Shown here piece by piece: positions 2,493 to 17,106 of a DNA stretch of 26,611 nt. The notes below the pieces were generated by a model, which was not told the origin of the DNA, ran no database searches, and worked only from the letters and a program-made list of their open reading frames with translations. Position 1 is the stretch's first letter, and every line of letters starts with the position of its first letter. Position numbers and translations under genes: made by a program. The stretch covers positions 1-26,611 of the forward strand of contig JBBQTJ010000008.1 in NCBI GenBank assembly GCA_038213315.1, read 5' to 3'. The stretch comes from Planctomycetota bacterium (GTDB lineage Bacteria; Planctomycetota; UBA11346).

Positions 2493-5396
2493 ATGCCCCT
2501 TGCTCATCTTGCCGCTGGTCACGCCTTGGTCCGTCTTGCCGCTGCCGTGCCCGAACGGGTCGCTGGTTGGGACGCCATCCTGGTCACGGCGGCCAGCCCC
2601 CAGCAGGCGGCGCTCTATCGGCTGCAACTGACCCGCGCCCGGGCCCGCGGCTTGCTGGCGGCCACCTGCCTGGACCTGGTGGTGCCGGATCCGGCGGGCA
2701 AACGCATCGGTAGTGGCGGCGCAACCCTGGGCGCCTTGCGCGCCTTGCAGGCCGCGGTGCCCGGTGACTGGACGGCCAAACGGGTGCTGCTGATCCACGC
2801 TGGTGGCGACAGCCGTCGGCTCCCCTGGGCCAATGTCATCGGCAAGCTCTTCGTGCCCTTTCCGTTGCTGGCCCCGGCAGAAGTGCCCCTGACCCTCTTC
2901 GATCACCTGCTCGCCATCGCTGCCCACGCGGCCCAGGCCATGCCAGCGGGGGGGCTGCTGACCCTGACCGGCGATGTACTGCCGCTGTTCGCCGCGGAGC
3001 GGATGCGTCCGCCGGTCGATGGGGGATTGGTTGTCACCGCGCCCACGCCGTTGGATCTGGCCAGCCGTCATGGGGTGATCCATGCCGGCGCGGATGGCTT
3101 GGTGCAGGATCTGCTGCAGAAGGCGACCCCGGCTCAATTGCAGACCTCGGGCGCGCTGGTGGGCGGTGCGGCGTTGTTGGACACCGGGGTTTATGCGTTC
3201 TTCGGTGGCGCTTTCAGCGGTCTGCTCCGCCTTGCGGCGCGCGCTGCCGATCCGGTGGCCGAGCTGGTCGCCAGCGGCAAAGAGATGAGCCTCTATGAAG
3301 AGATGGCCGCTGGCCTGGTGCCGCGCCGTCATGCCTGGCTTGAGGGACGCCCCCTCGGCGCAGAACTGCGCGGCGCCTTGCAGGGCTTTCCCCTGGTCGA
3401 GCACCGCGATGCCGAGTTTCGTTTCGTGCACCTGGGCACCACTGCCGAAGCGCTGGAGCATTTGCAGGATGACTGGGAGGGCCGCATGTCCCGCCGGGTG
3501 CTCTGCGAATGCGGACCCGCAGTTGACGATGGTGCGGTGATCGCCGCCAGTCTGCTCGACAGCGGCGCGGCGGTGGGCGCGGGTAGCCTGGTCTATGGTT
3601 CACATCTGGGTGGCCGCGTGGCGGTGGGCGCCCGCGCCGTGGTGCTGGGCGTGGACGTGCCGGATGCGCCCCTGCGCGTGCCGGACCACGCCTGCCTGTG
3701 GCAGGTGCCCCTGGCTGGTGGCGATCAGGTGGTGTCGGTGTGCTGCGGCGTCGACGATAATCCCAAGGACCTCTTCCCGGAATCCAGCTTCCTGGGCGAA
3801 CCGATGCCGGCGTGGCTTGATCGGCATGGCATCACCGCGGACGAGATCTGGCCGGCCGGCACCGCCAAGACCCTGTGGGATGCCCAGCTTTTCCCGGTCA
3901 TGCCGCGTCCGGCGGATGCGGGGTTGATGTCCTGGCTGTTGGCCGCCGCCCCCGCTGCCGGCCCGCTTGCCTGGCGGGCCTGCGAACGCCTCAGTCTGGC
4001 CCAGATCCACCGTCGCCTCGATCCCGATGCCGTGGTCGCCCGTCACGAAGAGCTGACCGGGCGCCTGGCCGTGCGTGGTGCGCTGAACGTGCTGGAGCAC
4101 GCCCTGGATCGGGACGTGTCGGCCATGGCGGCGCAGCTGACCCTGCCGCACCTGCGTCACGCCCTGGGGGCCTTGGCCGACGCGGGCGGCAGCGGTGAGG
4201 GCGTACCCGCCAGCCGCCGCCTGCAGGTGCGCGCCGATCTGCTGGCGGCCGGTGGGCAGCAGGCCCGTGCCGAGGCCACCAGTGACGAAGCCATGCGGGC
4301 CGTGCAGGCCGCGGTCACCGCCGCCATTGCTGATCGGCCGGTCGCACCGGTCAGCGGGGTGGACCCTGGCAGCCGGGCGACGCGCGAGCTGCCGGTGCGT
4401 TTCGACCTGGCCGGTGGCTGGACCGACACGCCACCGTATTGCCTGGAGCGGCCAGCGCGGGTGGTGAACCTAGCCATGTCCCTGGGCGGCCAATTGCCGG
4501 TGGGTGCCGAGGTGCAGGCCCTGGCCGAACCGCGCTTCGAACTGCTCATCGAAGGCGGCCCCAGTCGTACCATCAGCGATGCGCAGGAACTCGCCAACAT
4601 CACCCTGGCCGATACCCATGTGCTGCTGGTCACCGCCCTGGCGGTGTGCGGCTACGGCGACGGCCAGGGCATCACCCAGGGCTGTCGCGTACGCACCTGG
4701 TCGCACGTGCCGCGGGGCAGCGGTCTGGGTGGCAGTTCGATCCTGGCCGCGGCCTTGGTGGCCGCCTTGCAGCGTCTGGCCGGCCGCCCCGACGATCCAC
4801 GCACGGTCAGCGATCTGGTGTTGGTGCTCGAACAGCGCATGACCACCGGTGGCGGCTGGCAGGATCAGGTCGGCGCGTTGTGGCCCGGCATCAAGGCGAT
4901 CAGCAGTGTCCCGTCCCGCCCGCTGACGGTGCGCGTCGAGCCCATCACTGTGCCGGCTGCGGCGCGCCTTGCCCTAGAGCAGCGCCTGGTGCTGGTGTTC
5001 ACCGGCCAAGAGCGCCTGGCCAAGAACGTGCTTCAGATGGTGGTGCGCGGCTATCTGCGCCGCGACGGCCGGGTGCTGGCCGCCCTGCGCAACCTCGCTG
5101 GCCTGGCTGGGGATGCCCAGCAAGCCCTCAGCCTGGGCAATCTGGACTCCCTCGGCGGCATCCTCAAAGAGGTCTGGCACGCTCATCAGCAGCTTGATCC
5201 CCACTGCTCGAATCCGGCGGTGGATGCCATGTTTCGGGCCGTCGAGGACCTTGCCGTCGGTGGCAAGCTGGCCGGCGCGGGCGGCGGCGGCTTCCTGGGC
5301 GTGCTGGCCAAAGACGCCGAGTCGGCCCAGCGCATCGCCGGCCTGTTGCCGCAACGCTTCCCTGGCGTGCGGGTTTATCCGTGGGCGGTGGCTTAG
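2493..5396 (+). CDS. bifunctional L-fucokinase / fucose-1-phosphate guanylyltransferase (Fkp)-like protein, 967 aa
   Basis: The N-terminal half carries KRIGSGGATLGAL, matching the fucokinase-family nucleotidyltransferase motif (compare human FUK VGSGGATLNAL), and WDAILVTA. The C-terminal half carries the GHMP-kinase signature PRGSGLGGSSILAAALVAAL and a C-terminal GHMP fold. Architecture is collinear with Bacteroides Fkp. Confidence 0.8.
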   Translation: MPLAHLAAGHALVRLAAAVPERVAGWDAILVTAASPQQAALYRLQLTRARARGLLAATCLDLVVPDPAGKRIGSGGATLGALRALQAAVPGDWTAKRVLLIHAGGDSRRLPWANVIGKLFVPFPLLAPAEVPLTLFDHLLAIAAHAAQAMPAGGLLTLTGDVLPLFAAERMRPPVDGGLVVTAPTPLDLASRHGVIHAGADGLVQDLLQKATPAQLQTSGALVGGAALLDTGVYAFFGGAFSGLLRLAARAADPVAELVASGKEMSLYEEMAAGLVPRRHAWLEGRPLGAELRGALQGFPLVEHRDAEFRFVHLGTTAEALEHLQDDWEGRMSRRVLCECGPAVDDGAVIAASLLDSGAAVGAGSLVYGSHLGGRVAVGARAVVLGVDVPDAPLRVPDHACLWQVPLAGGDQVVSVCCGVDDNPKDLFPESSFLGEPMPAWLDRHGITADEIWPAGTAKTLWDAQLFPVMPRPADAGLMSWLLAAAPAAGPLAWRACERLSLAQIHRRLDPDAVVARHEELTGRLAVRGALNVLEHALDRDVSAMAAQLTLPHLRHALGALADAGGSGEGVPASRRLQVRADLLAAGGQQARAEATSDEAMRAVQAAVTAAIADRPVAPVSGVDPGSRATRELPVRFDLAGGWTDTPPYCLERPARVVNLAMSLGGQLPVGAEVQALAEPRFELLIEGGPSRTISDAQELANITLADTHVLLVTALAVCGYGDGQGITQGCRVRTWSHVPRGSGLGGSSILAAALVAALQRLAGRPDDPRTVSDLVLVLEQRMTTGGGWQDQVGALWPGIKAISSVPSRPLTVRVEPITVPAAARLALEQRLVLVFTGQERLAKNVLQMVVRGYLRRDGRVLAALRNLAGLAGDAQQALSLGNLDSLGGILKEVWHAHQQLDPHCSNPAVDAMFRAVEDLAVGGKLAGAGGGGFLGVLAKDAESAQRIAGLLPQRFPGVRVYPWAVA

Positions 5397-5511: not shown

Positions 5512-8052
5512 GTGCTTGCCAGGATCACTGAAAAACGCCTGTTGATCGTTCGGTGGCTGCTGCTACTGGCCTGGTGCGGACTCATCGCCGGGCTGCTGAC
5601 CATGCCGACGTTGCCGTTCCTCACGCTCTGGTGGTCAGCGGCCATTCCCGCCTTCCTGCTGTGCGTGCTTGTGCTTGGGCACGACACTTGGCGGCGGATC
5701 TGCCCACTGTCGGCCCTGAACCAGGTGCCGCGCCTGCTCGGCATCGGCCGGACGACGAAGGTGGCCGCCGGCTCGTGGCTGTCGCGGCATGCGCTGATGG
5801 TGCAGTTCACCGTGCTGACTGCCTGCGTGGTCCTGCGCCTGACCGTCCTCAACCAGTCGAGCGAGGCCCTGGGCATCTTCCTCATCGCCCTCCTGGGCAC
5901 GGCCCTGCTGGTCGGCTTCCTGGCGGGCGGCAAGTCCTGGTGCCACTTTGCCTGCCCGCTGGCGCCGGTGCAGATGGTTTACAGCGGTCCGCGCGGACTG
6001 CTGGCCACGCCGGCGGCCCTGGGCGGCAGCGGGCCCGGCCTGAGCCAAAGCATGTGCCGCAACGTCCGCGACGAACCGACCTGCGTGGCCTGCCACGCGC
6101 CCTGCCCGGACATCGACCTCGAAAAAAGTTATTGGGAGCAGCTCGAAGGGTTTGAGCGCCGCGCGGTGGTCTATGGCTATTTGGGATTGGCGGCCGGTTA
6201 CGTGATCCATGTGCGCGGCGCGCTGCCGATTTTCTGGGCGGGGCCGGTGGTGGTGGCGGCGATCCTGCTTGCCATCGGTGCGGGTGCGCTGCTGGAGCGA
6301 GCTTTGCGCGCCGGCGAGGCTACCCGCCACCGCCTGATGACCCTGGCGACGGTGCTGGCCTTCGGTCTGCTTATCGCTGGCGCGCTGCTGCCCTCCCTGC
6401 CCCAGGGCCTGCGCCTGCCGGTCGCGGCACTGACGTCGGCCGCCGCCGCGACCTGGAGCTGGAACGTGTGGCGCCGCACGCGCCGGCTGTGGCAGCGCGA
6501 GGCCATGGCCTCGGTGTTCCGCCGCCGCCTGGCCGAGCTGCCGCTGGACCTGTCGCCGCACCTCGATGGCCGGACCTTGGACCAGCTCTCCACCGACGAG
6601 GTCGGGGTGTTGGCCGCGGTGCTGCCCGGACTCAACCAAAGCCTGCGCCAGCGCCTCTACCAGGGCGTGCTCACCGACGCCGCCGCGGCTGGCCAGCTCG
6701 GCTCGGCGGACGGCGACGCCATGCTCGGGCGGTTGCGTAGCCAGCTGCACATCCCCGACGACCAGCACGAACTGCTGGTGGCAGCCCTACCCACCGCCGG
6801 CTCGATCAAGCGCCTGGATAGCTACCGGCAGGCGGTGGAGCGGCTGGTCCTGGACGGCCTGTCCGAAGGTGAAGCCCTGGATGAGGCGATCGAGCGCCGT
6901 CGCGAATCGCTGAGCCAGCTGCGGGCCGCCTATAGCGTCACCGACGAGGAGCAGGAGCAGGTGGTCTTTGCCTTGGTCAACGGCGATGGCCTGATCGGCC
7001 GTGCCGGCTCCTCGCTGCTGGCCGAGCTTGAACGGCTGTGCGCCGCGCGGGCGGCCCTGGGCACGGCGGGCGCCGAGGGCTTCCTGCGCGCCCACCTGGA
7101 CGAGCGCGGCCGGGCCCTGGCCACGCAGTTCAACGGGGTGCAGGCCGCGCTCGGAACCAGCGCCGCTGGCCAGGCCCTGGCCGTGGCCCGCACCGCCGCG
7201 GCCATCGACCCCGACCTGGTACCCGGCGCGTCGGGCCGCATCGCGCCCCTGGCCGTGGCCGAGGTCCGCACGCTCCTGGGCGGGGACGCGGATCCGATCG
7301 TCGCGGCTGTCGCCCGCCAACCGACCAGCCCGGCGGTGGTCCTGCGCCTGGCCCTGGCGGGCGAGGACGTGCCGTGCCGGGAAGCCACCGCACGCATCGG
7401 CCGCGATCCCGCCTCGACCGTGGTGGTCACCCATCCCCAGGCCAGCCGCAACCACTGCCTGGTCGGGCTGGATGCGGATGGCGCCTGGCTCCACGATCTG
7501 GGCAGCGGCAACGGCACCCTGGTCGACGGCCGTCTGGTGCGCGGGGCGCGGGTGCGGTTGCGCGCCAATGCGGTGATCCGCATCGGCAGCGACGGCCCCA
7601 GCTTGGCCGTAGGTGCGCGCGACTACGTGCCCAGCGACCGGGTAGACCTTTTTCTCGCCCTGCGCGCTTCGGCCTTGGGCACGCTGCCACAGGCCGTGCT
7701 GTGGGACCTGGCCGAGGTCTCCGCCCTGCGCTTGGAGTCGGCCGGCACCCGGCTGATAGAGGAGGGCGCGCCGGTCTGGTCGCTGCTGGTGCTGGTCGGC
7801 GGCACGGCAGTGGCGACCAGTGGCGGCCGGACGGTGGGCGAGATCGCCGTTGGCGAGACCATCGGGGAACTGGCCCTGATCAGCGAGCAATCGGCCGCGG
7901 TCACGGTGACCGCGGTCACCGCCTGCACGACGCTGGCCATCCCCGGGATCAGGGTCGCCAGCCTGCTGGCCCGCCATCCCGGCGTGGCCACCGCTCTGCT
8001 CATGCTTACTGGTCGACGTCTTGCCAGCGCTGCAATTGCGGCTAACGACTAA
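5512..8052 (+). CDS. multidomain membrane protein: NapH/MauN-like polyferredoxin (COG0348-type) N-terminal domain + helical linker + FHA domain + C-terminal cyclic-nucleotide-binding (CAP-family) domain
   Basis: 846-aa ORF with a GTG start at 5512 (start uncertain; an internal Met lies at 5602). Multiple TM helices carry the Cys motifs RICPLSAL, GKSWCHFACPLAP and MCRNVRDEPTCVACHAPCPD (a CxxCxxxCP 4Fe-4S-type motif). The FHA core is RIGRDPASTVVV...NHCLVGLDADGAWLHDLGSGNGTLVDGRLV (about 7370-7660). The cNMP-binding core is GETIGELALISEQ near the C-terminus (about 7660-8040). Confidence 0.75.
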   Translation: MLARITEKRLLIVRWLLLLAWCGLIAGLLTMPTLPFLTLWWSAAIPAFLLCVLVLGHDTWRRICPLSALNQVPRLLGIGRTTKVAAGSWLSRHALMVQFTVLTACVVLRLTVLNQSSEALGIFLIALLGTALLVGFLAGGKSWCHFACPLAPVQMVYSGPRGLLATPAALGGSGPGLSQSMCRNVRDEPTCVACHAPCPDIDLEKSYWEQLEGFERRAVVYGYLGLAAGYVIHVRGALPIFWAGPVVVAAILLAIGAGALLERALRAGEATRHRLMTLATVLAFGLLIAGALLPSLPQGLRLPVAALTSAAAATWSWNVWRRTRRLWQREAMASVFRRRLAELPLDLSPHLDGRTLDQLSTDEVGVLAAVLPGLNQSLRQRLYQGVLTDAAAAGQLGSADGDAMLGRLRSQLHIPDDQHELLVAALPTAGSIKRLDSYRQAVERLVLDGLSEGEALDEAIERRRESLSQLRAAYSVTDEEQEQVVFALVNGDGLIGRAGSSLLAELERLCAARAALGTAGAEGFLRAHLDERGRALATQFNGVQAALGTSAAGQALAVARTAAAIDPDLVPGASGRIAPLAVAEVRTLLGGDADPIVAAVARQPTSPAVVLRLALAGEDVPCREATARIGRDPASTVVVTHPQASRNHCLVGLDADGAWLHDLGSGNGTLVDGRLVRGARVRLRANAVIRIGSDGPSLAVGARDYVPSDRVDLFLALRASALGTLPQAVLWDLAEVSALRLESAGTRLIEEGAPVWSLLVLVGGTAVATSGGRTVGEIAVGETIGELALISEQSAAVTVTAVTACTTLAIPGIRVASLLARHPGVATALLMLTGRRLASAAIAAND

Positions 8053-8069
8053 CAGGAAACCATGGTCCC

Positions 8070-9692
8070 ATGCTGACTCTGCGCATCTCACATCCCCTGC
8101 ATGGCGATCGGGTCGCGACGCTGACCCAGGGGGACTTCACTGGCGACGGGGTGGCCGTTGGCCGCGCCCCCCGTAACCGCATCGTCCTCGACGAGCAGGT
8201 GGTCAGCCGGCTGCACGCCCGCCTGACCCTGACTGCGGGCGGGGTCTTCATCGCCGACTGCGCCTCGACTGCGGGCATCCTGTTGAACGGCGTGCGGCTG
8301 CCGCCCAGCACCCCGGCGCGGGTGGCGGATGGGGATCTCATCGCCATCGGCCCGTACACTATCGCGCTCGCGCCGGCGGTCTCGCTGGCCGCAGAACCCG
8401 AGGGCCTGGGCTTAACCGTCATGGCCGCTCCGCCGGTGGATTCCTACATGCCGTTGGCCGTCCTCGCCGATCAGGAGCCGGCCCAGTGGACGGGCGGTGA
8501 GCTGGCCGTGCGCGTGGTGCGCATCATCGACGAGACGCCGGACGTGAAGACCTTCGTCTTTGCGGCTGCCCATCCGACCCAGTTCACCTACCTGCCTGGC
8601 CAGTTCGCTACCATCGAGGTCCTGATCGACGGGGTGAAGACCAGCCGCAGCTACACCCTGTCGTCGACGCCCACCCGCCCATATACGCTCTCGATCACCG
8701 TTAAACGCGTGGCTGCCGCCAACGATCTGCCGGCGGGCAAGGTCAGCTCCTGGCTGCACGCACACTTGGCCGTGGGCGATGAACTGCGCATCAATGGTCC
8801 CTTCGGCGACTTTTCGTGTGCCCGCCATCCCAGCCCGCGGCTGCTGCTGATCAGCGCCGGCAGCGGCATTACGCCCATGTTGTCGATGGCGCGTTGGCTG
8901 GCCGACAGCGCCGCCGAGGCCGACGTCGCCTTCGTGCACAGCGCACGCAGCAGCGCCGACTTGATCTGCCGCCAGGACCTCGAGCTGCTCGTCGTCCATA
9001 ACCCGCGCCTGCGCGTGGTGCTGGCGACCACCCGGCCCGAGCCCGGCTCGCGCTGGACCGGCCTGAGCGGGCGCATTTCTCTCGACATGTTGCGCCTGAC
9101 CGTGCCGGACTTCGAGCGCCGCACGGTGTTCTGCTGCGGCCCAGAGGGCTTCATGGCCGGCACCAAGGAGATGCTCGCCCAGGCCGGCTTCCCCATGGCG
9201 AACTACCACGAGGAGAGCTTCGGCGCGCCCAGGCGCCCCACGCCCGCGGCGACACACAACCAGTCGGCCGTGTCCCCGCCGACGGAGTTTGGGCTGAAGG
9301 CTTTGCTGCGCGTCGACGCCTCGCCCCGCGCTGCCGCGCCCATGACCGCTGCCGCGCCCATGACCGCCGCCGCGCCCGGCCCCCACGGCAGCAGCGCGAC
9401 CCGCACCGCCATAAAAACCGAGACACTGGGCAGCCTGCACTTCACCGGCAGCCGCGTCTCGCTGGTGTGCCCGCCGGCCCAGACCGTGCTCGAAGCGGGT
9501 GAGAGCAAGGGCATCAAGCTGCCCTTCGGCTGCCGCATTGGGAAATGCGGCGCCTGCAAACTGGTTAAGCGCAGCGGCGAGGTGCTGGCCGACGGCTACG
9601 ACGATAGCATCCTGAAGGCAGGCGAGCGCAGCAAGGGCTACGTCTTGGCCTGCATCGCCCGACCCGCGGGCCGGGTCGAGATCGAAGCGTAG
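8070..9692 (+). CDS. FHA domain fused to a ferredoxin-NAD(P) reductase-type oxidoreductase (FAD/NAD binding) with a C-terminal plant-type 2Fe-2S ferredoxin domain
   Basis: 540 aa, 18 bp downstream of the previous gene, so a likely operon. FHA: GRAPRNRIVLDEQVVSRLHARL...DCASTAGILLNGVRL...GDLIAIG. FAD motif RSYTLSS (RxYS), GKVSSWL, NAD motif LLLISAGSGITPML, and CGPEGFM. 2Fe-2S: CRIGKCGACK...YVLAC. The linker carries a tandem AAPMTAAAPMTAAAP repeat. Confidence 0.8.
   Translation: MLTLRISHPLHGDRVATLTQGDFTGDGVAVGRAPRNRIVLDEQVVSRLHARLTLTAGGVFIADCASTAGILLNGVRLPPSTPARVADGDLIAIGPYTIALAPAVSLAAEPEGLGLTVMAAPPVDSYMPLAVLADQEPAQWTGGELAVRVVRIIDETPDVKTFVFAAAHPTQFTYLPGQFATIEVLIDGVKTSRSYTLSSTPTRPYTLSITVKRVAAANDLPAGKVSSWLHAHLAVGDELRINGPFGDFSCARHPSPRLLLISAGSGITPMLSMARWLADSAAEADVAFVHSARSSADLICRQDLELLVVHNPRLRVVLATTRPEPGSRWTGLSGRISLDMLRLTVPDFERRTVFCCGPEGFMAGTKEMLAQAGFPMANYHEESFGAPRRPTPAATHNQSAVSPPTEFGLKALLRVDASPRAAAPMTAAAPMTAAAPGPHGSSATRTAIKTETLGSLHFTGSRVSLVCPPAQTVLEAGESKGIKLPFGCRIGKCGACKLVKRSGEVLADGYDDSILKAGERSKGYVLACIARPAGRVEIEA
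9333..9377 (+). repeat. in-frame tandem repeat (18-bp unit gccgcgcccatgaccgcy x2.5) in the linker of the FHA-FNR protein
   Basis: Direct sequence inspection: gccgcgcccatgaccgct gccgcgcccatgaccgcc gccgcgccc. It encodes AAPMTAAAPMTAAAP. Confidence 0.7.
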
Positions 9693-9693
9693 C

Positions 9694-9720
9694 GTCACGG
9701 GCCGCGGGACGGCCCGTGAC
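9694..9720. terminator. perfect GC-rich hairpin between convergent operons (candidate bidirectional terminator)
   Basis: gtcacgggccg-cggga-cggcccgtgac: an 11-bp perfect stem with a 5-nt loop. It lies between the stop of the + strand gene (9692) and the stop of the - strand gene (9724). No U-tract, so not a canonical intrinsic terminator. Confidence 0.45.
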
Positions 9721-9723
9721 CCG

Positions 9724-10599
9724 TTAGCCGCCGCCGAGCATCTTCATCGCCTTCTGCAGACTGATGCGCATGCGCGAGAACGAGCCGGCCAGGCTGGCGA
9801 TCTCATCCTTGCCGGCGATCTTGGGATCGCCCGCCGAGAAGTCGCCCTTGCTCACCTGGTCGCACAGGCGGCTCAGGCGGGTGATCGGCCGCACCACCAT
9901 CACGCGCATGGCGAGGTTGAGGCTGATCAGGGCCAGGACGCCAGCGGCGGTAAGCGAGCCCATGAACACCAAGAAGGTGGTGCGCGCGCGCTCCAGGGAC
10001 ACCGAGGCCGGCACGGCGACGATCTGGGCGCCGACGATCTCGTTCATCTTCCAGCCGAAGCCGTTGTTGGGGCCATAGATCTTGATCACGCTCGCCGGCG
10101 CCTTGTCCGGCGTGCTGTGGCAGTCCAGGCAGCTCGCGTTGGTGATCTGGATCGGCCGGGCGATGTACATGACTTCGCCGGTCGGGGTGGTGCGCGTGCC
10201 GGAGACCTCCTTCGCGGTTTCGTTATTGCGGAAGTAGCCGATGATGTCGCTCTCCCAGTCTACCGCCCGGTCGGCGGGGTTGGTCGGATTGAGGGCCGCC
10301 TCGCGGTAGGTGTAGTCGGAGTGCTTCACGCGCAGCAGGTCGAAGGCGCGCATGGCGGCGAAGGCCGGCACCGTCTCGGGATGGAACACGTCGGCACCGA
10401 GCTGGGCGACCAGCGGCTTGACGTTGTTGATGGTATAGGTGCGCATCGACATCGCCGCTTCGAGCATCAGCGTGGCGCGCTCCCGGATCTCCGCCCGGGC
10501 GTTGCTGTAGATGATCTGGTACGAGATGGTGCCCATGACCAGCAGGGCCGCCACGAAAGTCGCGGTGAGGATGAGCGTGAACTTGGTGCGGAGATTCAT
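9724..10599 (-). CDS. membrane signalling protein: periplasmic c-type-heme sensor domain (CXXCH; DUF3365/Tll0287-like) + TM + HAMP domain, with no output domain
   Basis: 291 aa. N-terminal TM FTLILTATFVAALLVMGTI. The periplasmic part contains CLDCH, a c-type heme-binding motif. A second TM FLVFMGSLTAAGVLALISLNLA is followed by a HAMP-like segment (RPITRLSRLCDQVSKGDFSAGD...EIASLAGSFSRM). Its start ATG overlaps the kinase stop (ATGA). Confidence 0.7.
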   Translation of the reverse strand: MNLRTKFTLILTATFVAALLVMGTISYQIIYSNARAEIRERATLMLEAAMSMRTYTINNVKPLVAQLGADVFHPETVPAFAAMRAFDLLRVKHSDYTYREAALNPTNPADRAVDWESDIIGYFRNNETAKEVSGTRTTPTGEVMYIARPIQITNASCLDCHSTPDKAPASVIKIYGPNNGFGWKMNEIVGAQIVAVPASVSLERARTTFLVFMGSLTAAGVLALISLNLAMRVMVVRPITRLSRLCDQVSKGDFSAGDPKIAGKDEIASLAGSFSRMRISLQKAMKMLGGG

Positions 10600-12053
10600 A
10601 TGAGGCTCAGTTTCTGCATTTCCTTGCGGAACGCGGCGCGGTCATGGTCGTCGGGGATCTCGCTTTCGAGCTGGGCGATGAGATCCTTGATGCTGCTCGC
10701 CTTGTTCACCATCCGCTTGACCAGCATCTGGGCGATCGGGCCGATGTGCTTGGCCAGTTCGCGGGAGATGTTCTCGGTAATCTCGTCGTCGGCGATCTTC
10801 GTGGCGGCACGCGGCGCGGTGGCGCGCGGCGCAATGGCATCTGCCCCCGCAGAGGAGCCGCTCGCCTCGATGGCCTTGCGCGCGGCGGCGGTGTTGAGCA
10901 GCGAGGTGATGTTCTCCAGCGCCGGCGAGGCGCGCAGCTGGTCGCCAGCCTGGGAAGTAAGGTTGTCGAGCAACTGCTGGGCGTTGGTCGCCGACTTGAT
11001 CGACTTGAACAAGACCGGCGTGGCCCGCTCGCCGATCGACTCCTCAAGCTGCTTGCGGATCTCCTCGACCAGGTGAGAAGGGATGGAGCGCATGCGCGTC
11101 AGGTCGACTGACGGCGCCTGGATACCGGTGACCATTGTGCGGTCTCCGTCTATCCCGCCGGCGAAACCGGGGACACCTTCAAGCCGTTGCAGCACCGCAT
11201 CGGCGTGCTGGGGCCGCTGCACCGCCTGCGGCCGCATCAGCCAGGCCAGCACCTGCGCCAGCTGCGCGCCGGCACTGTCCCGGGCGGCGATGACCTTCAG
11301 CGACCCGTCGATGCCGTCGGTCTGGTTGGACTGGTCCGAGATGGTGCGCTGGATCGCCTCGGTCGGAACAGTGCCGGTCAGGCAGTACAGCATGCAGGCG
11401 CCGACTGCGTACAGGTCGGTGGCCGGGCCCTGGGCATCGGTGCCGGTATATTGTTCCATGGGCGCATAGCCTGCGGTCACCAGCACCGTGAAGTTGCGCT
11501 CCTGGTCGCCCAGGTTTTGCCGGGCCGAGCCGAAGTCGAGCAACAGGATGCTGCCGTCGGGCCGGCGCATGATGTTGGCCGGTTTAATGTCACGGTGGAG
11601 GTAGCTGTGGGCGTGAATGACCCGCAGGGCCTTCAGGATCTCGATCAGGATGGCCCGCGCCTCGCCCACGCTAAGGGTGCCGTACTGGCGCACGTGATCG
11701 CGTAGCGTCATGCCCTCGACGTAGTCCATCACCATATAGGCGGTGTTGTTGGCCTCGTGGAAGCCGTGGACGTGCACGATGCGCGGGTCGCGGAACTGGG
11801 CGAGCGTGCGGGCCTCGTCCAGGAAGCGGTTGAGGCGCTTCCGGTAGCCCTCGTCGTCCACTTTGCCGGCGATGGTGAGCCCGTCCAAGGCCCGCGTCAC
11901 CTGGCCGTGCAGGAAGTACTCTTTGATGGCCACCATGCGCTGGAGCTGCACGTCCCAGGCCTGGTAGGTAAGGCCGAAGCCGCCGCGGCCCAGCAGTTTG
12001 GCGATGCGGTAGTGACCCAGCTGGGTGCCGGGCTGCAGGGCGTCGTCAGGCAT
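10596..12053 (-). CDS. Hanks-type serine/threonine protein kinase with a ~210-aa C-terminal helical extension containing an internal repeat
   Basis: Glycine loop LGRGGFGLTY, VAIK (catalytic Lys), HRDIKPANIM, DFGSAR and APE-like motifs. C-terminal repeats LVEEIRKQLEESIGERATPVL... and ITENISRELAKHIGPIAQMLV.... No TM segment. Translationally coupled to the downstream HAMP gene. Confidence 0.9.
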   Translation of the reverse strand: MPDDALQPGTQLGHYRIAKLLGRGGFGLTYQAWDVQLQRMVAIKEYFLHGQVTRALDGLTIAGKVDDEGYRKRLNRFLDEARTLAQFRDPRIVHVHGFHEANNTAYMVMDYVEGMTLRDHVRQYGTLSVGEARAILIEILKALRVIHAHSYLHRDIKPANIMRRPDGSILLLDFGSARQNLGDQERNFTVLVTAGYAPMEQYTGTDAQGPATDLYAVGACMLYCLTGTVPTEAIQRTISDQSNQTDGIDGSLKVIAARDSAGAQLAQVLAWLMRPQAVQRPQHADAVLQRLEGVPGFAGGIDGDRTMVTGIQAPSVDLTRMRSIPSHLVEEIRKQLEESIGERATPVLFKSIKSATNAQQLLDNLTSQAGDQLRASPALENITSLLNTAAARKAIEASGSSAGADAIAPRATAPRAATKIADDEITENISRELAKHIGPIAQMLVKRMVNKASSIKDLIAQLESEIPDDHDRAAFRKEMQKLSLI

Positions 12054-13651: not shown

Positions 13652-14338
13652 TCAGGAGCGGCTGTCCTGGGGGTGGTAGCGGACTTCGATCTGCTCCACA
13701 GGTTCGGTGCGGTCATCGGCGCCCAGGTGCGCGATGTCGGCCAGCGCTCCGGTCATGCGCCAGGTGCGATCCACCGGCAGGCGACGCACCAGGGTGGTGA
13801 GCGCAGCGGGATGCCAGTCACAGGCCACCGCCCGTCCGGTCATCAGCTTGGCCAGTTCGTTGAGGATGATCGCGTGACTGACCACCACCACGCGCTGGGC
13901 GAACGGCTTGCGCGCCTTCAGGTCGGCCACCACGGCGGTGCAGCGCTGTTGAATGGTGCGATCAGACTCCGGATGGCTCGGCTTGCCGGCCCCGACGCGA
14001 CGCTCGGCCCAGGCCGGATCCATGGCGCTGGTCGCGCTGAAGGGGCTGCCCAGCACCTGCGACAGCAAGACCTCGCCGAGGCGCCAATCCGCCGTGACGG
14101 TGGTGGCACAGGCCGCCGCGATGAGGTCGGCGGTTTCCAGACAGCTGCGGAAGGGTGAGGACAGCACCACCGTGGCCCCACCGTCAGCGGCCACGCGCGT
14201 GGCGGCATGCCGGGCCTGGGTCTGCCCGCTGGCGGCCAGCGCGGCATCAAGCCGCAAGTGCGGTTCGGTGCCCCGCACTTTCAAGCGCTGATCCCAAGAG
14301 AGGAGGTAGCCGTGGCGGATCAGGACGATGGTCTGCAT
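13652..14338 (-). CDS. histidine phosphatase (phosphoglycerate mutase family) protein
   Basis: Starts at MQTIVLIRHGY (RHG catalytic motif), with SSPFRSCLETADLIA and VVSHAIIL (the second His). The track ORF extends 22 codons further upstream, but the conserved family start is at the Met of MQTIVLIRHG. Confidence 0.7.
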   Translation of the reverse strand: MQTIVLIRHGYLLSWDQRLKVRGTEPHLRLDAALAASGQTQARHAATRVAADGGATVVLSSPFRSCLETADLIAAACATTVTADWRLGEVLLSQVLGSPFSATSAMDPAWAERRVGAGKPSHPESDRTIQQRCTAVVADLKARKPFAQRVVVVSHAIILNELAKLMTGRAVACDWHPAALTTLVRRLPVDRTWRMTGALADIAHLGADDRTEPVEQIEVRYHPQDSRS

Positions 14339-14580
14339 GTACCGCGAGGGTGGCGGGCCAGGGGCGGAACGGAATCCTGAAAATGCCCCTGGCTCTGCTG
14401 GCAATCGGGTCGATCCAGACGGCAGGATCAGGACATCAATGCACCTGCCTCGCTCTGGATCCTACCCTCATCACCCGCTTCTGTACCGACGGCAACACCG
14501 TGGTGCGAGGCGTGTTCAGCGCTGCCGAGGTCGCCCACTTCCGCACCCTGAGCCTAGCCCGCAGCGGCGGCAGAGCCGCC

Positions 14581-15499: not shown

Positions 15500-15620
15500 C
15501 GGACGATGTTGGCTCAGTCCCCTGAGCAACCTATTTGTGACAAAGGAGAGCCTGAGAGGCGTGGCCATGCCGCGCGACCCCAACACCTGATCCGGATCAT
15601 GCCGGCGGAGGGATGGTGCA
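15500..15620 (+). ncRNA. TPP (THI-box) riboswitch upstream of the transporter gene
   Basis: Contains CCUGAGAGG (CUGAGA box), then GACCCC, then ACCUGAUCCGGAUCAUGCCGGCGGAGGGA. This matches the conserved P4/P5 pyrophosphate-sensing core (consensus ACCUGAUCUGGAUAAUGCCAGCGUAGGGA). An extra 7-bp hairpin GCGUGGC-CAU-GCCGCGC sits between the CUGAGA and ACCC boxes. The 5' P2 strand is atypical. Context: it is divergent from thiD. Confidence 0.65.
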
Positions 15621-15624
15621 GCGC

Positions 15625-15660
15625 GTCCTCCGGCCGCGTCCTTCGCCATTTTTGGAGGAC
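15625..15660 (+). promoter_or_regulatory. SD-sequestering helix of the riboswitch expression platform
   Basis: GUCCUCC (15625-15631) is perfectly complementary to the GGAGGAC SD (15654-15660), which lies 4 nt upstream of ATG 15664. Confidence 0.5.
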
Positions 15661-15663
15661 TCC

Positions 15664-17106
15664 ATGGACGCACCCCTTGCCCTGCCCGCTATGATCATCG
15701 CCATCGTCGTGTGCGGTGGCTTCGCTCTGATGGGTGCGCTCAATGCGCGCCGTCAGAGCACTGATGCGGCCGCCTTCAACCAGGCCCGTGGCAGCACCGG
15801 AGCGCTGTGGTCGGCGCTCAGCCTGGTCGCGCTGATGGCCGGCACCTGGGTGCTGTTCAGCCCGGGCGAGATGACCAGTTACACCGGGGTGGCGACTTTG
15901 GTTGGGTATGCCCTCGGCATGGCAGCACCCTTGGTGATCCTGGCCTGGCTGGGTCCGGCCCTGGTTCGCCGCTATCCCGAGGCGGCTGGACCTGGGATGA
16001 TGGCGCGCGCCCGTTGGGGTGCGCCCGCGCAGCTGCTCGTCTCGGTCCTGACTGTGGCCTATATGGGCAGCTATGTGGTCGCTGAACTGACCGCGATCAG
16101 CGGTGCTTTCGGCATCGTCGCTGGTGTGCCGGCCTGGGCCACCGCGCTGCTGGTCGCCACCGCGACCCTGTCGTACGCCGCCTGGGGCGGGTTGCGCGTA
16201 ACCATCTTCACCGACGGTGTGCAGGCCTGGTTCATCCTGCCGCTACTGATCGCCGCCTTCATCGGGACCATCGGAGCTTTCGGCGGCTGGGAGGCAGCCC
16301 AACAGCCCCTGGCCGCGCGCGCCGACCTGATGACCCTGGCCAGCCGGCCCGGTATTGAGGCCGGCATGATGCTGATGCTGGGCATCATCGCCGCCAATCT
16401 GCTGGACCAAAGCGTCTGGCAGCGCGTCATCGCCTGCCGCGACGACGCCACCCGCCGCCGCGCCTTCTTGTTGGCCGCGCTCGGCATCATCCCGGTCATT
16501 CTGATGGCTGGGTGGTTCGGCTTATGGTACGCGGCGCGCAATGCCGACCTGGCCAATGCTTCGTCGGCCCTGTTCCAGGTCATCGCCCAGGCCACGCCAG
16601 CCTGGGTGGCCCTCGCCGTCCTCGCCCTCGCCCTGATCCTGGTGATGAGCACCCTCGGCTCGCTCGCTAACGGCCTCGCTGCCCTGGTCGCCGCCGATGT
16701 GGCCAGCTTCCGACCAGGCCTCTCGCCACGCCAGCGCTTGGCCATCGGCCGCGGGGTGACCATCGCTGCCGCCCTGATCGCCGTGCCCATCGCGGCGGCG
16801 CAGCCCAGTGTAACCTATGTCTTCCTGGCCGCGGATCTGCTCTGCGCCACGGCGGTGGTGCCGCTGTTTGCTGGGCTTCTTGGTGTGCGCCTGTCACAGT
16901 TTGGCTTATTTTCTGCCGTCGCCCTGGGCATGGCGTGCGCCATTCCGGCCTTCCCACGTCCCGATTTCGTCACCCCCTGGGTTGAGCTGCGTCCGCTGCT
17001 CCATCTGCCTGCCGACGTCAACGCCATGCTGGTCAGTTTCGCCCTGGCGGTGGTGGTGCCGCTGCTGGTGACCGTGGTGTGGCCCAAGGCGGCACCAGTT
17101 CGATAG
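15664..17106 (+). CDS. sodium:solute symporter family (SSF) transporter, ThiV-like (thiamine or HMP precursor uptake predicted from the riboswitch)
   Basis: About 12 predicted TM helices. SSF signature GGLRVTIFTDGVQ (compare GGxxAVxxTDxxQ). Start chosen at ATG 15664 with a GGAGGA SD. The track ATG at 15613 lies inside the aptamer. Confidence 0.75.
   Translation: MDAPLALPAMIIAIVVCGGFALMGALNARRQSTDAAAFNQARGSTGALWSALSLVALMAGTWVLFSPGEMTSYTGVATLVGYALGMAAPLVILAWLGPALVRRYPEAAGPGMMARARWGAPAQLLVSVLTVAYMGSYVVAELTAISGAFGIVAGVPAWATALLVATATLSYAAWGGLRVTIFTDGVQAWFILPLLIAAFIGTIGAFGGWEAAQQPLAARADLMTLASRPGIEAGMMLMLGIIAANLLDQSVWQRVIACRDDATRRRAFLLAALGIIPVILMAGWFGLWYAARNADLANASSALFQVIAQATPAWVALAVLALALILVMSTLGSLANGLAALVAADVASFRPGLSPRQRLAIGRGVTIAAALIAVPIAAAQPSVTYVFLAADLLCATAVVPLFAGLLGVRLSQFGLFSAVALGMACAIPAFPRPDFVTPWVELRPLLHLPADVNAMLVSFALAVVVPLLVTVVWPKAAPVR

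Follow-up and report, generated by a model that had tools for sequence, protein, structure and literature searches.

A predicted FHA-bearing membrane oxidoreductase and a putative split heme sensor-kinase encoded by two tail-to-tail gene pairs

The four adjacent genes considered in this study (A to D; Table 1) are two independent conserved pairs and not one conserved module. A sequence-only reading of the window, by which we mean the whole 26.6-kb stretch of DNA that was analysed, had joined them into a single system, but the neighbourhoods of homologous genes show A-B and C-D conserved separately. The side-by-side placement of the pairs suggests, without proving it, a phosphorylation switch for electron flow into the membrane. 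Neither pair was found in the literature within reach of our search, which agrees with the claim that the architecture had not been described; however, there are published precedents for the class of sensor to which C belongs (sCache_heme-HAMP, an NO sensor), as there are for the pairing of HAMP-only with STAC proteins.

Organization and conservation of the two pairs

All four open reading frames were found where the sequence-only reading had placed them, and the start of A agrees with the starts of its homologues in the alignment. The intergenic gap between A and B is 17 nt, and the D stop shares bases with the C start in an ATGA overlap. The pairs are two convergent transcription units with a hairpin in between (fold energy -27.5 kcal/mol, z = -2.6), which is likely a bidirectional terminator and was missed by a consensus terminator scan because a T-run is absent.

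Table 1. Positions of the four genes, their domains and the intervening hairpin in the window.
Feature	Position	Strand	Description	Basis
Gene A	5512..8052	+	846 aa, membrane Cys/Fe-S protein, FHA and cNMP-like domains	ORF call, Pfam
A N-terminal membrane domain	5512..6486	+	residues 1-325, 8 helices, distantly Fer4_5/NapH-like	alignments, AF2, hydropathy
A middle helical domain	6487..7311	+	~residues 326-600, ~270 aa, kept across family	alignment
A FHA domain	7393..7587	+	residues 628-692	Pfam 4e-15, residue conservation
A cNMP-binding-like domain	7741..7977	+	residues 744-822	Pfam 3.7e-9, alignment with cyanobacterial PRSAT-type homologues
Gene B	8070..9692	+	540 aa, FHA, FNR-type FAD/NAD(P)H reductase, C-terminal plant-type 2Fe-2S	Pfam, motifs
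B FHA domain	8154..8351	+	residues 29-94	Pfam 2e-16, alignment of 52 B-type FHA domains
B FAD_binding_6 and NAD_binding_1	8511..9167	+	residues 148-366	Pfam 4.6e-13 and 5e-16
B disordered linker, NAD to 2Fe-2S domain	9237..9434	+	~21% Ser+Thr	linker statistics
B 2Fe-2S ferredoxin domain (Fer2)	9444..9665	+	residues 459-532	Pfam 1e-13
Hairpin	9695..9721	no strand	perfect 11-bp stem, GTCACGGGCCG-CGGGA-CGGCCCGTGAC	between convergent B and C stops
Gene C	9724..10599	-	291 aa, TM / periplasmic c-heme Cache (sCache_heme/Tll0287-like) / TM / HAMP	Pfam, hydropathy
C HAMP domain	9754..9897	-	residues 235-282	Pfam 8.6e-8
C periplasmic Tll0287-like domain	10009..10503	-	CLDCH at 10117-10131	Pfam 4e-39
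Gene D	10596..12053	-	485 aa, soluble Hanks-type Ser/Thr kinase, tandem STAC-like C-terminus	Pfam, hydropathy
D C-terminal two four-helix units	10611..11078	-	residues ~326-399 and ~423-481	AF2 model, pLDDT 87.6
D kinase domain	11199..12011	-	residues 15-285, VAIK41, HRD153, DFG173 intact	Pfam Pkinase 3e-37

After dereplication at 95%, A-type genes were represented by 147 lineages, and in 55 of these, mostly cyanobacteria, a B-like FNR-Fer2 gene (~50% identity) lies within 1.5 kb. A precedes B in 60 loci and follows it in 7. A and B are fused as one polypeptide in two lineages, Floridaenema (L059, 999 aa) and Scytonema NUACC26 (L064, 977 aa), in which the membrane and middle domains of A are joined directly to FNR and Fer2; these two fusions contain no FHA or cNMP domain. 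When A bears an FHA domain, B is adjacent in 33 of the 39 determinable lineages and is itself FHA-bearing in 31 of those 33; among 60 lineages in which A lacks FHA, 24 have B next to A or fused to it. We consider the view of A-B as a single functional redox unit supported, and the loss of FHA in the fusions fits an FHA-mediated, phosphorylation-dependent coupling of the two proteins.

The C-D pair recurs on Burkholderiales-type contigs (L094, L095 and L096/L097, at 80, 69 and 51% identity) in both gene orders and in otherwise unrelated neighbourhoods. C and D are paired in all three of these additional proteobacterial contexts and also in Pseudanabaena, and their function as one signalling unit is likewise supported. 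The pair mirrors the archaeal Af1503/Af1502 pair, and genes for STAC proteins are coupled in genomes to those for Af1503-like receptors that end in HAMP (PMC4834066). Elsewhere, C-type sensors adjoin caspase-STAC (L052) and cyclase-STAC (L178) genes.

Domains and motifs of the four proteins

The FHA, cNMP_binding, FAD_binding_6, NAD_binding_1, Fer2, HAMP and Pkinase domains expected from the sequence-only reading were all matched in Pfam. The description of A as a NapH-like polyferredoxin holds only loosely. Fer4_5 was matched by 29 of 31 members of the A family at E<=0.05 (best 2.4e-7), but A of the window scored 16.4 bits, under the cut-off of 22, and it contains only one ferredoxin-like motif. 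Because of this sub-threshold score, we infer Fe-S binding by A from its Cys patterns only. The residues H57, C64, C144, C148, C182, C191, C194 and C198 of the membrane domain are invariant in alignments of 26 and 31 homologues; they include one CX3CP motif (C144-C148-P149), an isolated Cys-Pro (C64-P65) and one C-x8-C-x2-C-x3-CP motif (C182, C191, C194, C198). NapH/CcoG-type membrane redox proteins have these CX3CP and CxxCxxxCP motifs, whereas the two 4Fe-4S motifs of NapH are lacking in A. The loops carrying these Cys and His residues are positively charged and are therefore read as cytoplasmic. The AF2 model of the membrane domain has a pLDDT of 82 and a pTM of 0.83, and no fold match to it was found among solved structures.

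The FHA domain had been regarded as the only non-redox module of the two electron-transfer proteins; A, however, also carries the helical middle domain, which gave only a weak ENT-like match in Pfam and profile searches and is unrelated to the C-terminus of D (hhalign probability 0.1). The FHA residues of A are canonical (GR / SRNH / GSGNGT). The phosphate-binding cassette of the cNMP-like domain (7852-7914) lacks the canonical Arg in the alignment of the window clade, in which the proposed cNMP modulation of A is doubtful.

The assignment of B as an FHA domain joined to an FNR-type FAD/NAD reductase and a 2Fe-2S domain was borne out by the Pfam matches and by the motifs RSYT, GSGITP and Cys488/493/496/528. 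Its FHA domain keeps GR and SRLH, and the canonical Asn is replaced by Ala (STAG). Within the linker, EFGLKALLRV (9285-9314) is a conserved motif and positions 9330-9377 form an AAAPMT repeat; over 56 B homologues, the linkers have a median length of 60 aa, ~20% Ser+Thr and a recurring G-[LF]-[KR]-x-[LM]-L. This segment is a candidate for phospho-acceptance or docking. The nearest NCBIfam model is GbcB (323 bits against a cut-off of 500), and P450 reductase, BenC and NqrF are among the relatives in the PDB. The families nearest to B (GbcB, BenC, Hcr and NqrF) are examples of electron delivery to a redox partner.

As proposed earlier, C is a CXXCH heme sensor with HAMP and without an output domain, only 9 residues following the HAMP domain. 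The heme domain is flanked by two TM helices, CLDCH occupies residues 157-161, and a third periplasmic Cys is absent. The family comprises at least 2984 members, all of ~290 aa, and a sensor of the same sCache_heme-HAMP architecture binds NO (PMC12889525). The view of D as a cytoplasmic Hanks kinase also stands, with the catalytic motifs intact and no TM helix detected by hydropathy. PF26309 is recorded on D orthologues, and the C-terminal units, the second of which contains LAKHIGPIAQMLV, are equivalent to DUF8082 and STAC-like. Af1502 was the top PDB match to this region in Foldseek (probability 0.92, TM 0.62) and also led the sequence-profile search, where the alignment is on the IGPIA motif; the E-values of the STAC assignment, 2.0 and 0.13, are both non-significant.

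Possible coupling of the pairs and competing interpretations

The interpretation that we favour, and to which we give an even chance, is that two separately conserved two-gene systems stand tail to tail, an A-B oxidoreductase and a C-D split sensor-kinase, with D marking A and B. According to this proposal, A-B would be a membrane-bound oxidoreductase of two subunits that depends on NAD(P)H. In B, electrons from NAD(P)H would move via FAD to the 2Fe-2S domain, and from there to an Fe-S centre with Cys ligands (C182/C191/C194/C198) at the cytoplasmic side of the membrane domain of A, possibly also ligated by C64/C144/C148/H57. Candidate final acceptors are a membrane quinone and a membrane or periplasmic substrate. 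Since both A and B carry FHA domains, productive docking or activity would depend on Thr phosphorylation, probably in the Ser/Thr-rich B linker or a cytoplasmic region of A. C would act as a periplasmic c-type-heme Cache sensor of the NO-binding class, its HAMP domain signalling non-covalently to the tandem STAC-like domains of soluble D. The kinase gating of the electron path that had been proposed is plausible, backed by the fusions and the co-distribution of FHA domains, although the pairs are not co-conserved. In the source organism, D is the likeliest candidate for writing the pThr marks read by A and B, but this link is unproven.

It is possible, although in our judgment rather unlikely, that the pairs are chance neighbours without a functional relation, other kinases serving the FHA domains of A and B and D having other targets. 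The closest sequenced relatives of either pair occur without the other nearby: no C-D was found within 10 kb of the A-B relatives L005/L006, L007 and L008 (67%, 60% and 36% identity), and no A-B near the C-D relatives L094-L097. Furthermore, the convergent operons and the terminator-like hairpin between them mean that co-regulation of A-B and C-D stays a conjecture, and the C-D family greatly outnumbers A-B, which means that D must act on other substrates in most cases. In L179, a 72% relative, the kinase next to A-B is a different one, with 28% identity. Kinase enrichment near A-type genes at the cluster level (5 of 18 with B vs 2 of 23 without B) is statistically weak and only suggestive. 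However, D is the only kinase in the window, and a rough estimate places the chance of finding a roughly single-copy gene within 10 kb at well under 1% per genome. In addition, a C orthologue lies 3-5 kb from A-B in two cyanobacterial loci, L052 and L060, and in the latter a STAC-type kinase adjoins it; identity of these loci to the window is only 30-43%, and their gene orders differ. Unrelated Ser/Thr kinases also lie near A-B in several lineages (L179, Nostocales with a CHASE2-kinase, and others), which counts partly in favour of a link. Against it, the sensor and kinase are absent from the ~7 kb covered downstream of A-B in the Pseudanabaena relatives of L060 (L055, L062 and L063).

Two further interpretations concern the proteins themselves. 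We regard it as improbable that A is no electron-transfer enzyme but a signalling or transport protein that senses redox state or metals, with B reporting the NAD(P)H/NAD(P)+ state to the Cys cluster. Regulatory or scaffold-like parts make up more than 60% of A (the middle, FHA and cNMP domains, with HEAT in some homologues), the membrane fold has no solved relative, no conserved terminal-acceptor or catalytic partner gene was found beside A-B among the neighbourhoods compared, and in 42 lineages the A-type gene, with room on either side, has no reductase next to it. However, a dedicated and sometimes fused FNR and 2Fe-2S module characteristically marks the supply of electrons to a terminal redox partner, and the Cys motifs are typical of redox proteins. 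In a sensing A, the FHA, cNMP and helical domains would serve as output or scaffold. We give still less credence to the FHA domains being phosphorylation-independent, constitutive protein-protein or oligomerisation modules like YscD-type folds, with no kinase gating. In favour of it, the FHA domains of both A and B also match Yop-YscD_cpl in Pfam, the canonical Asn is lost across B-type FHA domains, and for many A-B loci the nearest 10 kb are free of kinase genes. Against it, a kinase next to A-B is a recurrent finding in several lineages, and the phosphate-contacting Arg and Ser (GR and SxxH) are canonical in A-type and >89% conserved in B-type domains (n=52).

A conserved membrane protein and its reductase

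All four open reading frames that the sequence-only reading had called in the window were confirmed, with the same coordinates (see the table). We consider genes A and B, a membrane Cys/Fe-S protein with FHA and cNMP-like domains and an FHA-bearing reductase, to be almost certainly an old and conserved unit, and we think it probable that the two form an electron-transfer enzyme. A word-indexed protein search recovered 32 relatives of A only; pattern scans with its membrane domain located more than 550 stretches, at the least, in species genomes and some 500 in metagenomic data, and nearly all of the best 80 of these species-genome matches carry cyanobacterial labels. Small per-domain HMMs were run over every ORF of 177 fetched loci, and dereplication at 95% identity left 147 A-type lineages. 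An FNR-Fer2 gene lies within 1.5 kb of the A-type gene in 55 of the 147 lineages, with an FNR module approximately 50% identical to that of B, and is fused to it in two; 42 lineages have no adjacent reductase despite room on both sides, and in 48 the contigs are too short for deciding whether a reductase adjoins A. Both fused proteins are ordered membrane domain, middle domain, FNR and Fer2, and contain neither an FHA nor a cNMP domain. B adjoins an FHA-bearing A in 33 of the 39 determinable lineages, and is adjacent or fused in 24 of the 60 in which A has no FHA domain; B is likewise FHA-bearing in 31 of those 33 cases, and over all 55 lineages with an adjacent B gene, 46 of these genes encode an FHA domain. 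In addition, the linker between FNR and Fer2 in B-type proteins is unusually long (median 60 aa, approximately 20% Ser plus Thr) and has a recurring motif, G-[LF]-[KR]-x-[LM]-L. Because of the adjacency, the fusions, the FHA distribution and the linker, we consider A and B to be paired both physically and in function. Coupling of the halves through their FHA domains is an attractive reading, because these domains are dispensable once the halves are covalently joined. Whether or not the gating model discussed below holds, A-B would represent a family of membrane redox enzymes that is widespread and, it appears, uncharacterised; a description of it was not found in the literature searched.

Coordinates of the genes, fusions and neighboring features discussed (locus numbers denote relatives; all other positions are in the window)
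Feature	Position	Strand	Size or remark	Source
Gene A	5512-8052	+	846 aa	Pfam
Gene B	8070-9692	+	540 aa; starts 17 nt past A	Pfam
Gene C	9724-10599	-	291 aa	Pfam
Gene D	10596-12053	-	485 aa, soluble	Pfam
A-B fusion	L059:10001-13000		999-aa single ORF	Floridaenema flaviceps
A-B fusion	L064:10001-12934		977-aa single ORF	Scytonema sp. NUACC26
EFGLKALLRV in B linker	9285-9314		B residues 406-415	
AAAPMT tandem repeat in B linker	9330-9377		B residues 421-436	
Hairpin between B and C	9695-9721		perfect 11-bp stem	
Fkp-like gene	2493-5396	+		
His_Phos_1 gene	13652-14404	-		
His_Phos_1 gene	L005:7902-8366			
His_Phos_1 gene	L095:13692-14327			
SSF/SLC5 gene	15613-17106	+		
PhnD-like gene	L052:11945-12841	-		
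PhnD-like gene	L060:16761-17648	-		
Caspase-STAC gene	L052:14361-16547	-		
Cyclase-DUF8082 gene	L178:160-1317	+		
A-type protein P0029	L011:8001-9926			

The sequence-only reading described A as a NapH-like polyferredoxin, and this description is partly borne out: of 31 family members, 29 reach E<=0.05 against Fer4_5 (PF12801; best 2.4e-7) and the Cys motifs are similar, but A of the window scores 16.4-18.0 bits, under the cut-off of 22, and has one ferredoxin-like motif. The AF2 model of the N-terminal domain (pLDDT 82, pTM 0.83) has eight membrane helices, and alignment of 31 homologues identifies H57, C64, C144, C148, C182, C191, C194 and C198 as invariant. One CX3CP motif is complete, W143-C144-x3-C148-P149, and only the Cys-Pro pair C64-P65 is left of the second, both being invariant; the ferredoxin-type motif is a single variant, C182-x8-C191-x2-C194-x3-C198-P. 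Our criteria for a NapH-like polyferredoxin include two CX3CP motifs at cytoplasmic TM-helix ends and two cytoplasmic CxxCxxCxxxCP 4Fe-4S motifs, and A is not a polyferredoxin; one homologue of A carries this name as a JGI label. Hydropathy and charge place the invariant Cys and His in putative cytoplasmic loops, because these loops are positively charged. The motifs resemble those of the NapH/CcoG type, and, as in NapH, MauN, NosR and CcoG, the TM helices are followed by a predicted cytoplasmic W-C-x3-C-P and a CxxCxxxCP ferredoxin-type motif. However, A has 8 TM helices and the known family 4-5, the first CX3CP is cut to a single Cys-Pro, one ferredoxin-like motif stands where NapH has two, a large cytoplasmic regulatory extension is added, and the partner is a dedicated NAD(P)H reductase, whereas the NapH family has quinol or periplasmic partners. 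A solved structural relative of the membrane domain was sought and none was found. A relation of the middle domain of A to the C-terminus of D was rejected (hhalign probability 0.1).

The extension contains an FHA domain at residues 628-692 (PF00498; Pfam 4e-15, 56 bits), in which the canonical GR, SRNH and GSGNGT are all present, and a cNMP_binding match (PF00027) at residues 744-822 (Pfam 3.7e-9). The cNMP domain claimed for A stands by score (36.9 bits versus a cut-off of 27.5) and by the Gly and Glu of GELAL, but the position of the canonical phosphate-binding Arg is Ala in A, and across the window clade this Arg is either displaced or missing; cyanobacterial homologues keep PRSAT. Most of the latter also have, in the first loop (A1 alignment columns 40-95), a 30-45-residue and probably periplasmic insert with two conserved Cys, which is absent from the window clade (between A residues ~41 and 42).

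In B, the Pfam domains follow the order FHA, FAD_binding_6, NAD_binding_1 and Fer2, and the motifs RSYT193 (FAD), GSGITP264 (NAD(P)H) and C488/C493/C496/C528 (2Fe-2S) are intact. The composition proposed from the sequence was therefore correct, and B has the features of an FNR-type reductase with a C-terminal plant-type ferredoxin (GbcB/Hcr/PDR-like). Its FHA domain (61 bits) keeps GR and SRLH, and STAG replaces S-x-N-G; the FHA Asn is variable across 52 B-type domains. The proposal that the FHA domains read pThr is consistent with GR and SxxH in both proteins, but B is without the canonical Asn. Of the named families, GbcB, Hcr, BenC and NqrF come closest, and B scores under the equivalog cut-off of each. 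Identity with GbcB (NF058606) was rejected at 323 bits versus an equivalog cut-off of 500, with no Rieske gene in the window, and identity with Hcr or PaaE was rejected on scores under the cut-offs and on the absence of a cognate oxygenase nearby; neither a Rieske oxygenase nor a hybrid-cluster partner was found near B. B shares the FAD/NAD(P)H FNR fold and the plant-type 2Fe-2S domain with NqrF, GbcB, BenC, Hcr and phthalate dioxygenase reductase. Unlike these FNR plus 2Fe-2S reductase components, it carries FHA at its N-terminus and a Ser/Thr-rich linker of ~60 aa ahead of the 2Fe-2S domain. In the B linker of the window we observed EFGLKALLRV, with counterparts in distant homologues such as AFGIKAWLGKL and GGLRQWLGKL, followed by a tandem AAAPMT repeat; this motif and repeat may be a docking or phospho-regulated element.

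Several further observations concern the surroundings and variants of A. A soil and rhizosphere variant (L115, L124, L128, L132, L134 and L146) places FNR-Fer2 first and the A-type gene after it; both proteins are without FHA, cNMP is kept, and a gene for a Ser/Thr kinase is often located 1-4 kb upstream. In one cyanobacterial A-type protein (P0029 of L011), the C-terminus gives a weak STAC-like/DUF8082 match (E 2e-6 with our own model; graded 'faint' in precomputed Pfam), which hints at possible direct wiring between HAMP-only sensors and A-type proteins. Immediately upstream of A in the window lies an Fkp-like gene (bifunctional fucose pyrophosphorylase / GHMP-kinase), which is not conserved beside A-B in any relative examined.

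The predicted heme sensor and the STAC-like kinase

The sequence-only reading regarded C as a periplasmic CXXCH-heme sensor that ends in HAMP without an output domain and is translationally coupled to D, a cytoplasmic Hanks kinase. The Pfam matches and the TM layout agree with this view: a TM helix (~5-31), a Tll0287-like domain (DUF3365, PF11845; 134.7 bits, 4e-39) with CLDCH at residues 157-161, a second TM helix (~207-239), and a HAMP domain (Pfam, 32.8 bits) at which the protein ends. Given the HMM match, the CXXCH, the predicted periplasmic site and the HAMP domain, C is, as judged from its sequence, a member of the sCache_heme signalling class. D matches Pkinase (PF00069) at 128.7 bits, and its GRGGFG, VAIK41, HRD153 and DFG173 motifs mark the predicted soluble product as a Hanks-type Ser/Thr kinase. 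The stop of D and the start of C overlap in ATGA, and this overlap upholds the translational coupling. The C family comprises at least 2984 matches of uniform length (289-291 aa), and relatives are labelled Burkholderiales, Usitatibacter or Gammaproteobacteria. In three further contexts (80, 69 and 51% identity; L094-L097), C directly adjoins a Pkinase-DUF8082 gene; both gene orders were seen, the neighborhoods are otherwise unrelated, and A-B is absent. We are highly confident that C-D is a second, independent unit. HAMP ORFs near A-B in L027, L029, L047, L112 and L156 were rejected as orthologues of C, as they match the HAMP part of the model only.

A word-indexed search with the C-terminus of D gave zero matches. 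An exhaustive phmmer search with its last 176 residues found 921 representatives, in which the match is a unit of ~70 aa, usually doubled; Pfam records it as DUF8082 (PF26309) on D orthologues. Pkinase is the host domain in 52 of 69 long matches, and adenylate/guanylate cyclase, caspase, TIR and SEFIR domains are the other partners among these 69. The C-terminus of D is modelled as two four-helix units (AF2, pLDDT 87.6). The consensus of the unit is L-A-x3-G-P-I-A-x-V-L-V; unit 2 of D reads LAKHIGPIAQMLV, and unit 1 is degenerate (IGERATPVL). Af1502 of Archaeoglobus fulgidus is the top PDB match both by structure (Foldseek probability 0.92, TM 0.62, E 2.0, non-significant alone) and by the sequence profile of the unit (E 0.13, likewise non-significant alone), and the profile alignment to Af1502 sets LLDELKKEIGPIAKIFLNKAME against LAxxxGPIAxVLVK, the consensus of the family. 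As the founding member of the STAC domains, Af1502 has an LGPx(x)A motif, and it is translationally coupled to Af1503, a classic HAMP-only receptor (PMC4834066). Our criterion for STAC was a four-helix bundle of ~65 aa with LGPx(x)A between helices 1 and 2. The agreement of two independent searches, the common motif and the matching genomic logic make a tandem STAC probable for the C-terminus of D. Coupling to a HAMP-only receptor is seen in the ATGA overlap of the window, and the pairing is kept in L094-L097 and L060. Furthermore, a caspase-STAC gene directly adjoins the C orthologue in L052, and a cyclase-DUF8082 gene in L178 begins 7 bp past a gene that ends in a C-like HAMP terminus, GKDEISTLGASFNRMRRSLDRAMSML.

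The likeness to Af1503/Af1502 lies in a cytoplasmic part of C that is HAMP only and in an overlapping gene D that bears four-helix units with an LGPx(x)A-type motif (IGPIA). Unlike Af1502, the putative STAC of D is tandem-duplicated and fused to a Hanks kinase, with cyclase, caspase or TIR fusions elsewhere; unlike in the Af1503 system, the sensor is a c-heme Cache and the hosts are bacterial. A 2026 preprint reclassifies DUF3365/Tll0287 as a c-heme Cache domain and describes a Pseudomonas azotoformans sCache_heme-HAMP that binds NO, not O2 (PMC12889525). That sensor and C are identical in predicted architecture (TM, c-heme Cache with CXXCH, TM, HAMP, no output domain), and both are without the extra Cys for Tll0287-type Cys/His ligation. 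The searched portion of PMC12889525 names no signalling partner and contains the word 'operon' 0 times, and its passages do not mention a Ser/Thr kinase, whereas a conserved STAC-like kinase partner is identified here for C.

Relation of the two pairs and the proposed gating

According to the sequence-only reading, all four genes make up one redox-coupled Ser/Thr phospho-signalling module. A-B and C-D are each conserved, and A-B lies near a C orthologue in L052 and L060; however, the pairs are separate in relatives and convergent in the window, and the evidence speaks against the four genes as a fixed module. A perfect hairpin stands between the convergent ends of B and C, which makes A-B one transcription unit and D-C another. 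Sigma-70 promoter and T-run terminator scans gave little information from DNA of 67% GC (60-75% across the window). Conservation of the neighborhood gives a divided answer. C and D are absent within 10 kb of the A-B relatives L005/L006 (67%), L007 (60%) and L008 (36%), and A-B is absent near the C-D relatives L094-L097, so that these loci hold one pair only; A-B does occur near a C orthologue in L060 (Pseudanabaena; A, B, a ComFB gene, a PhnD-like gene, the C orthologue and a STAC-type kinase) and in L052 (A, B, then the C orthologue with caspase-STAC). Because their identity to the window is 30-43% and their gene orders differ, the L052 and L060 arrangements are independent events, and the L060 arrangement is absent from sister Pseudanabaena loci over the roughly 7 kb downstream of A-B that the comparison covered.

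The presence of FHA domains on both A and B implies kinase input. The closest A-B relative (L179, 72%) has a 336-aa kinase, 28% identical to D, 0.8 kb upstream, and a CHASE2-kinase gene directly follows B in Scytonema, Stigonema and Tolypothrix; in Nostoc, the distance is 1-4 kb. Counted by clusters of 70% identity, each with 12 kb or more of flanking DNA, a kinase is near A in 5 of 18 with B versus 2 of 23 without B, an association that is suggestive, not decisive. The kinase that feeds A-B appears to differ by lineage, and D is the obvious candidate in the Planctomycetota host; that D phosphorylates A or B is possible but somewhat doubtful.

In the mechanism we propose, electrons would pass from NAD(P)H to FAD in B, to its 2Fe-2S cluster, to an Fe-S centre that Cys residues would ligate at the cytoplasmic side of A, and from there to a membrane or periplasmic acceptor. 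In Na+-NQR, NqrF feeds the intramembrane Fe-S centre of NqrD/E. We propose, by analogy, that electron entry into A-B works in the same manner, with a Cys-ligated acceptor centre in A that membrane helices would hold; in sequence, A and NqrD/E are unrelated. C would sense a periplasmic heme ligand, probably NO by analogy, or redox state, and would govern D through a HAMP-STAC contact. D would phosphorylate B in its Ser/Thr-rich linker and/or A in its cytoplasmic region, and the resulting pThr, read by the two FHA domains, would gate coupling or activity: reciprocal docking would bring reductase B onto membrane protein A and open the electron path. In the fused lineages, the gate may have been hard-wired open and the FHA domains discarded. 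Taken as a whole, this route from C through D to a pThr-gated electron path is unlikely.

Precedents for control by Hanks kinases and FHA domains are the ABC transporter Rv1747 with PknF, and OdhI/GarA with PknG. The FHA domain of Rv1747 is among the PDB matches of A, and the likeness, an analogy, would be that an FHA domain on or beside the effector reads pThr from a nearby Ser/Thr kinase; unlike in those systems, FHA domains occur on both subunits of the putative electron-transfer enzyme A-B. The earlier statement that no such system has been described holds in part. In the literature searched we found neither gene pair described, no FHA-FNR or FHA-Fer4_5 protein, no redox pair in which both partners bear FHA domains, and no STAC fused to a Hanks kinase or other effector as the output of heme-Cache/HAMP sensors; however, every single domain, the class of C and the HAMP-only/STAC pairing are already known. 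If the gating model is true, it would be a clear bacterial case in which Ser/Thr phosphorylation, acting through FHA domains of the two redox partners, assembles or switches a respiratory-type electron path. The analysis of C-D also suggests a signal route for HAMP-only receptors, both Af1503-like and NO-binding sCache_heme-HAMP, by way of STAC-like domains on separate effectors. If the whole route from C to the electron path is true, a corollary is that STAC would be the general receiver for output-less HAMP receptors, Af1503 included, and would pass their signal to effectors encoded by separate genes (kinase, cyclase, caspase, TIR).

Three neighboring genes deserve mention. A PhnD-like periplasmic binding-protein gene (Phosphonate-bd) stands divergent beside the C orthologue in L052 and L060, and the window is without an equivalent. 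A His_Phos_1 (histidine-phosphatase-superfamily) gene lies a few kb from A-B or C-D in the window, L005 and L095, near whose pairs no PP2C phosphatase was seen; its placement may come from shared synteny, or the gene may encode a cognate phosphatase. The STAC name comes from an association with SLC5 transporters, and a sodium:solute symporter (SSF/SLC5) gene lies 3.5 kb from D in the window; with three unrelated genes between, this may be a coincidence.
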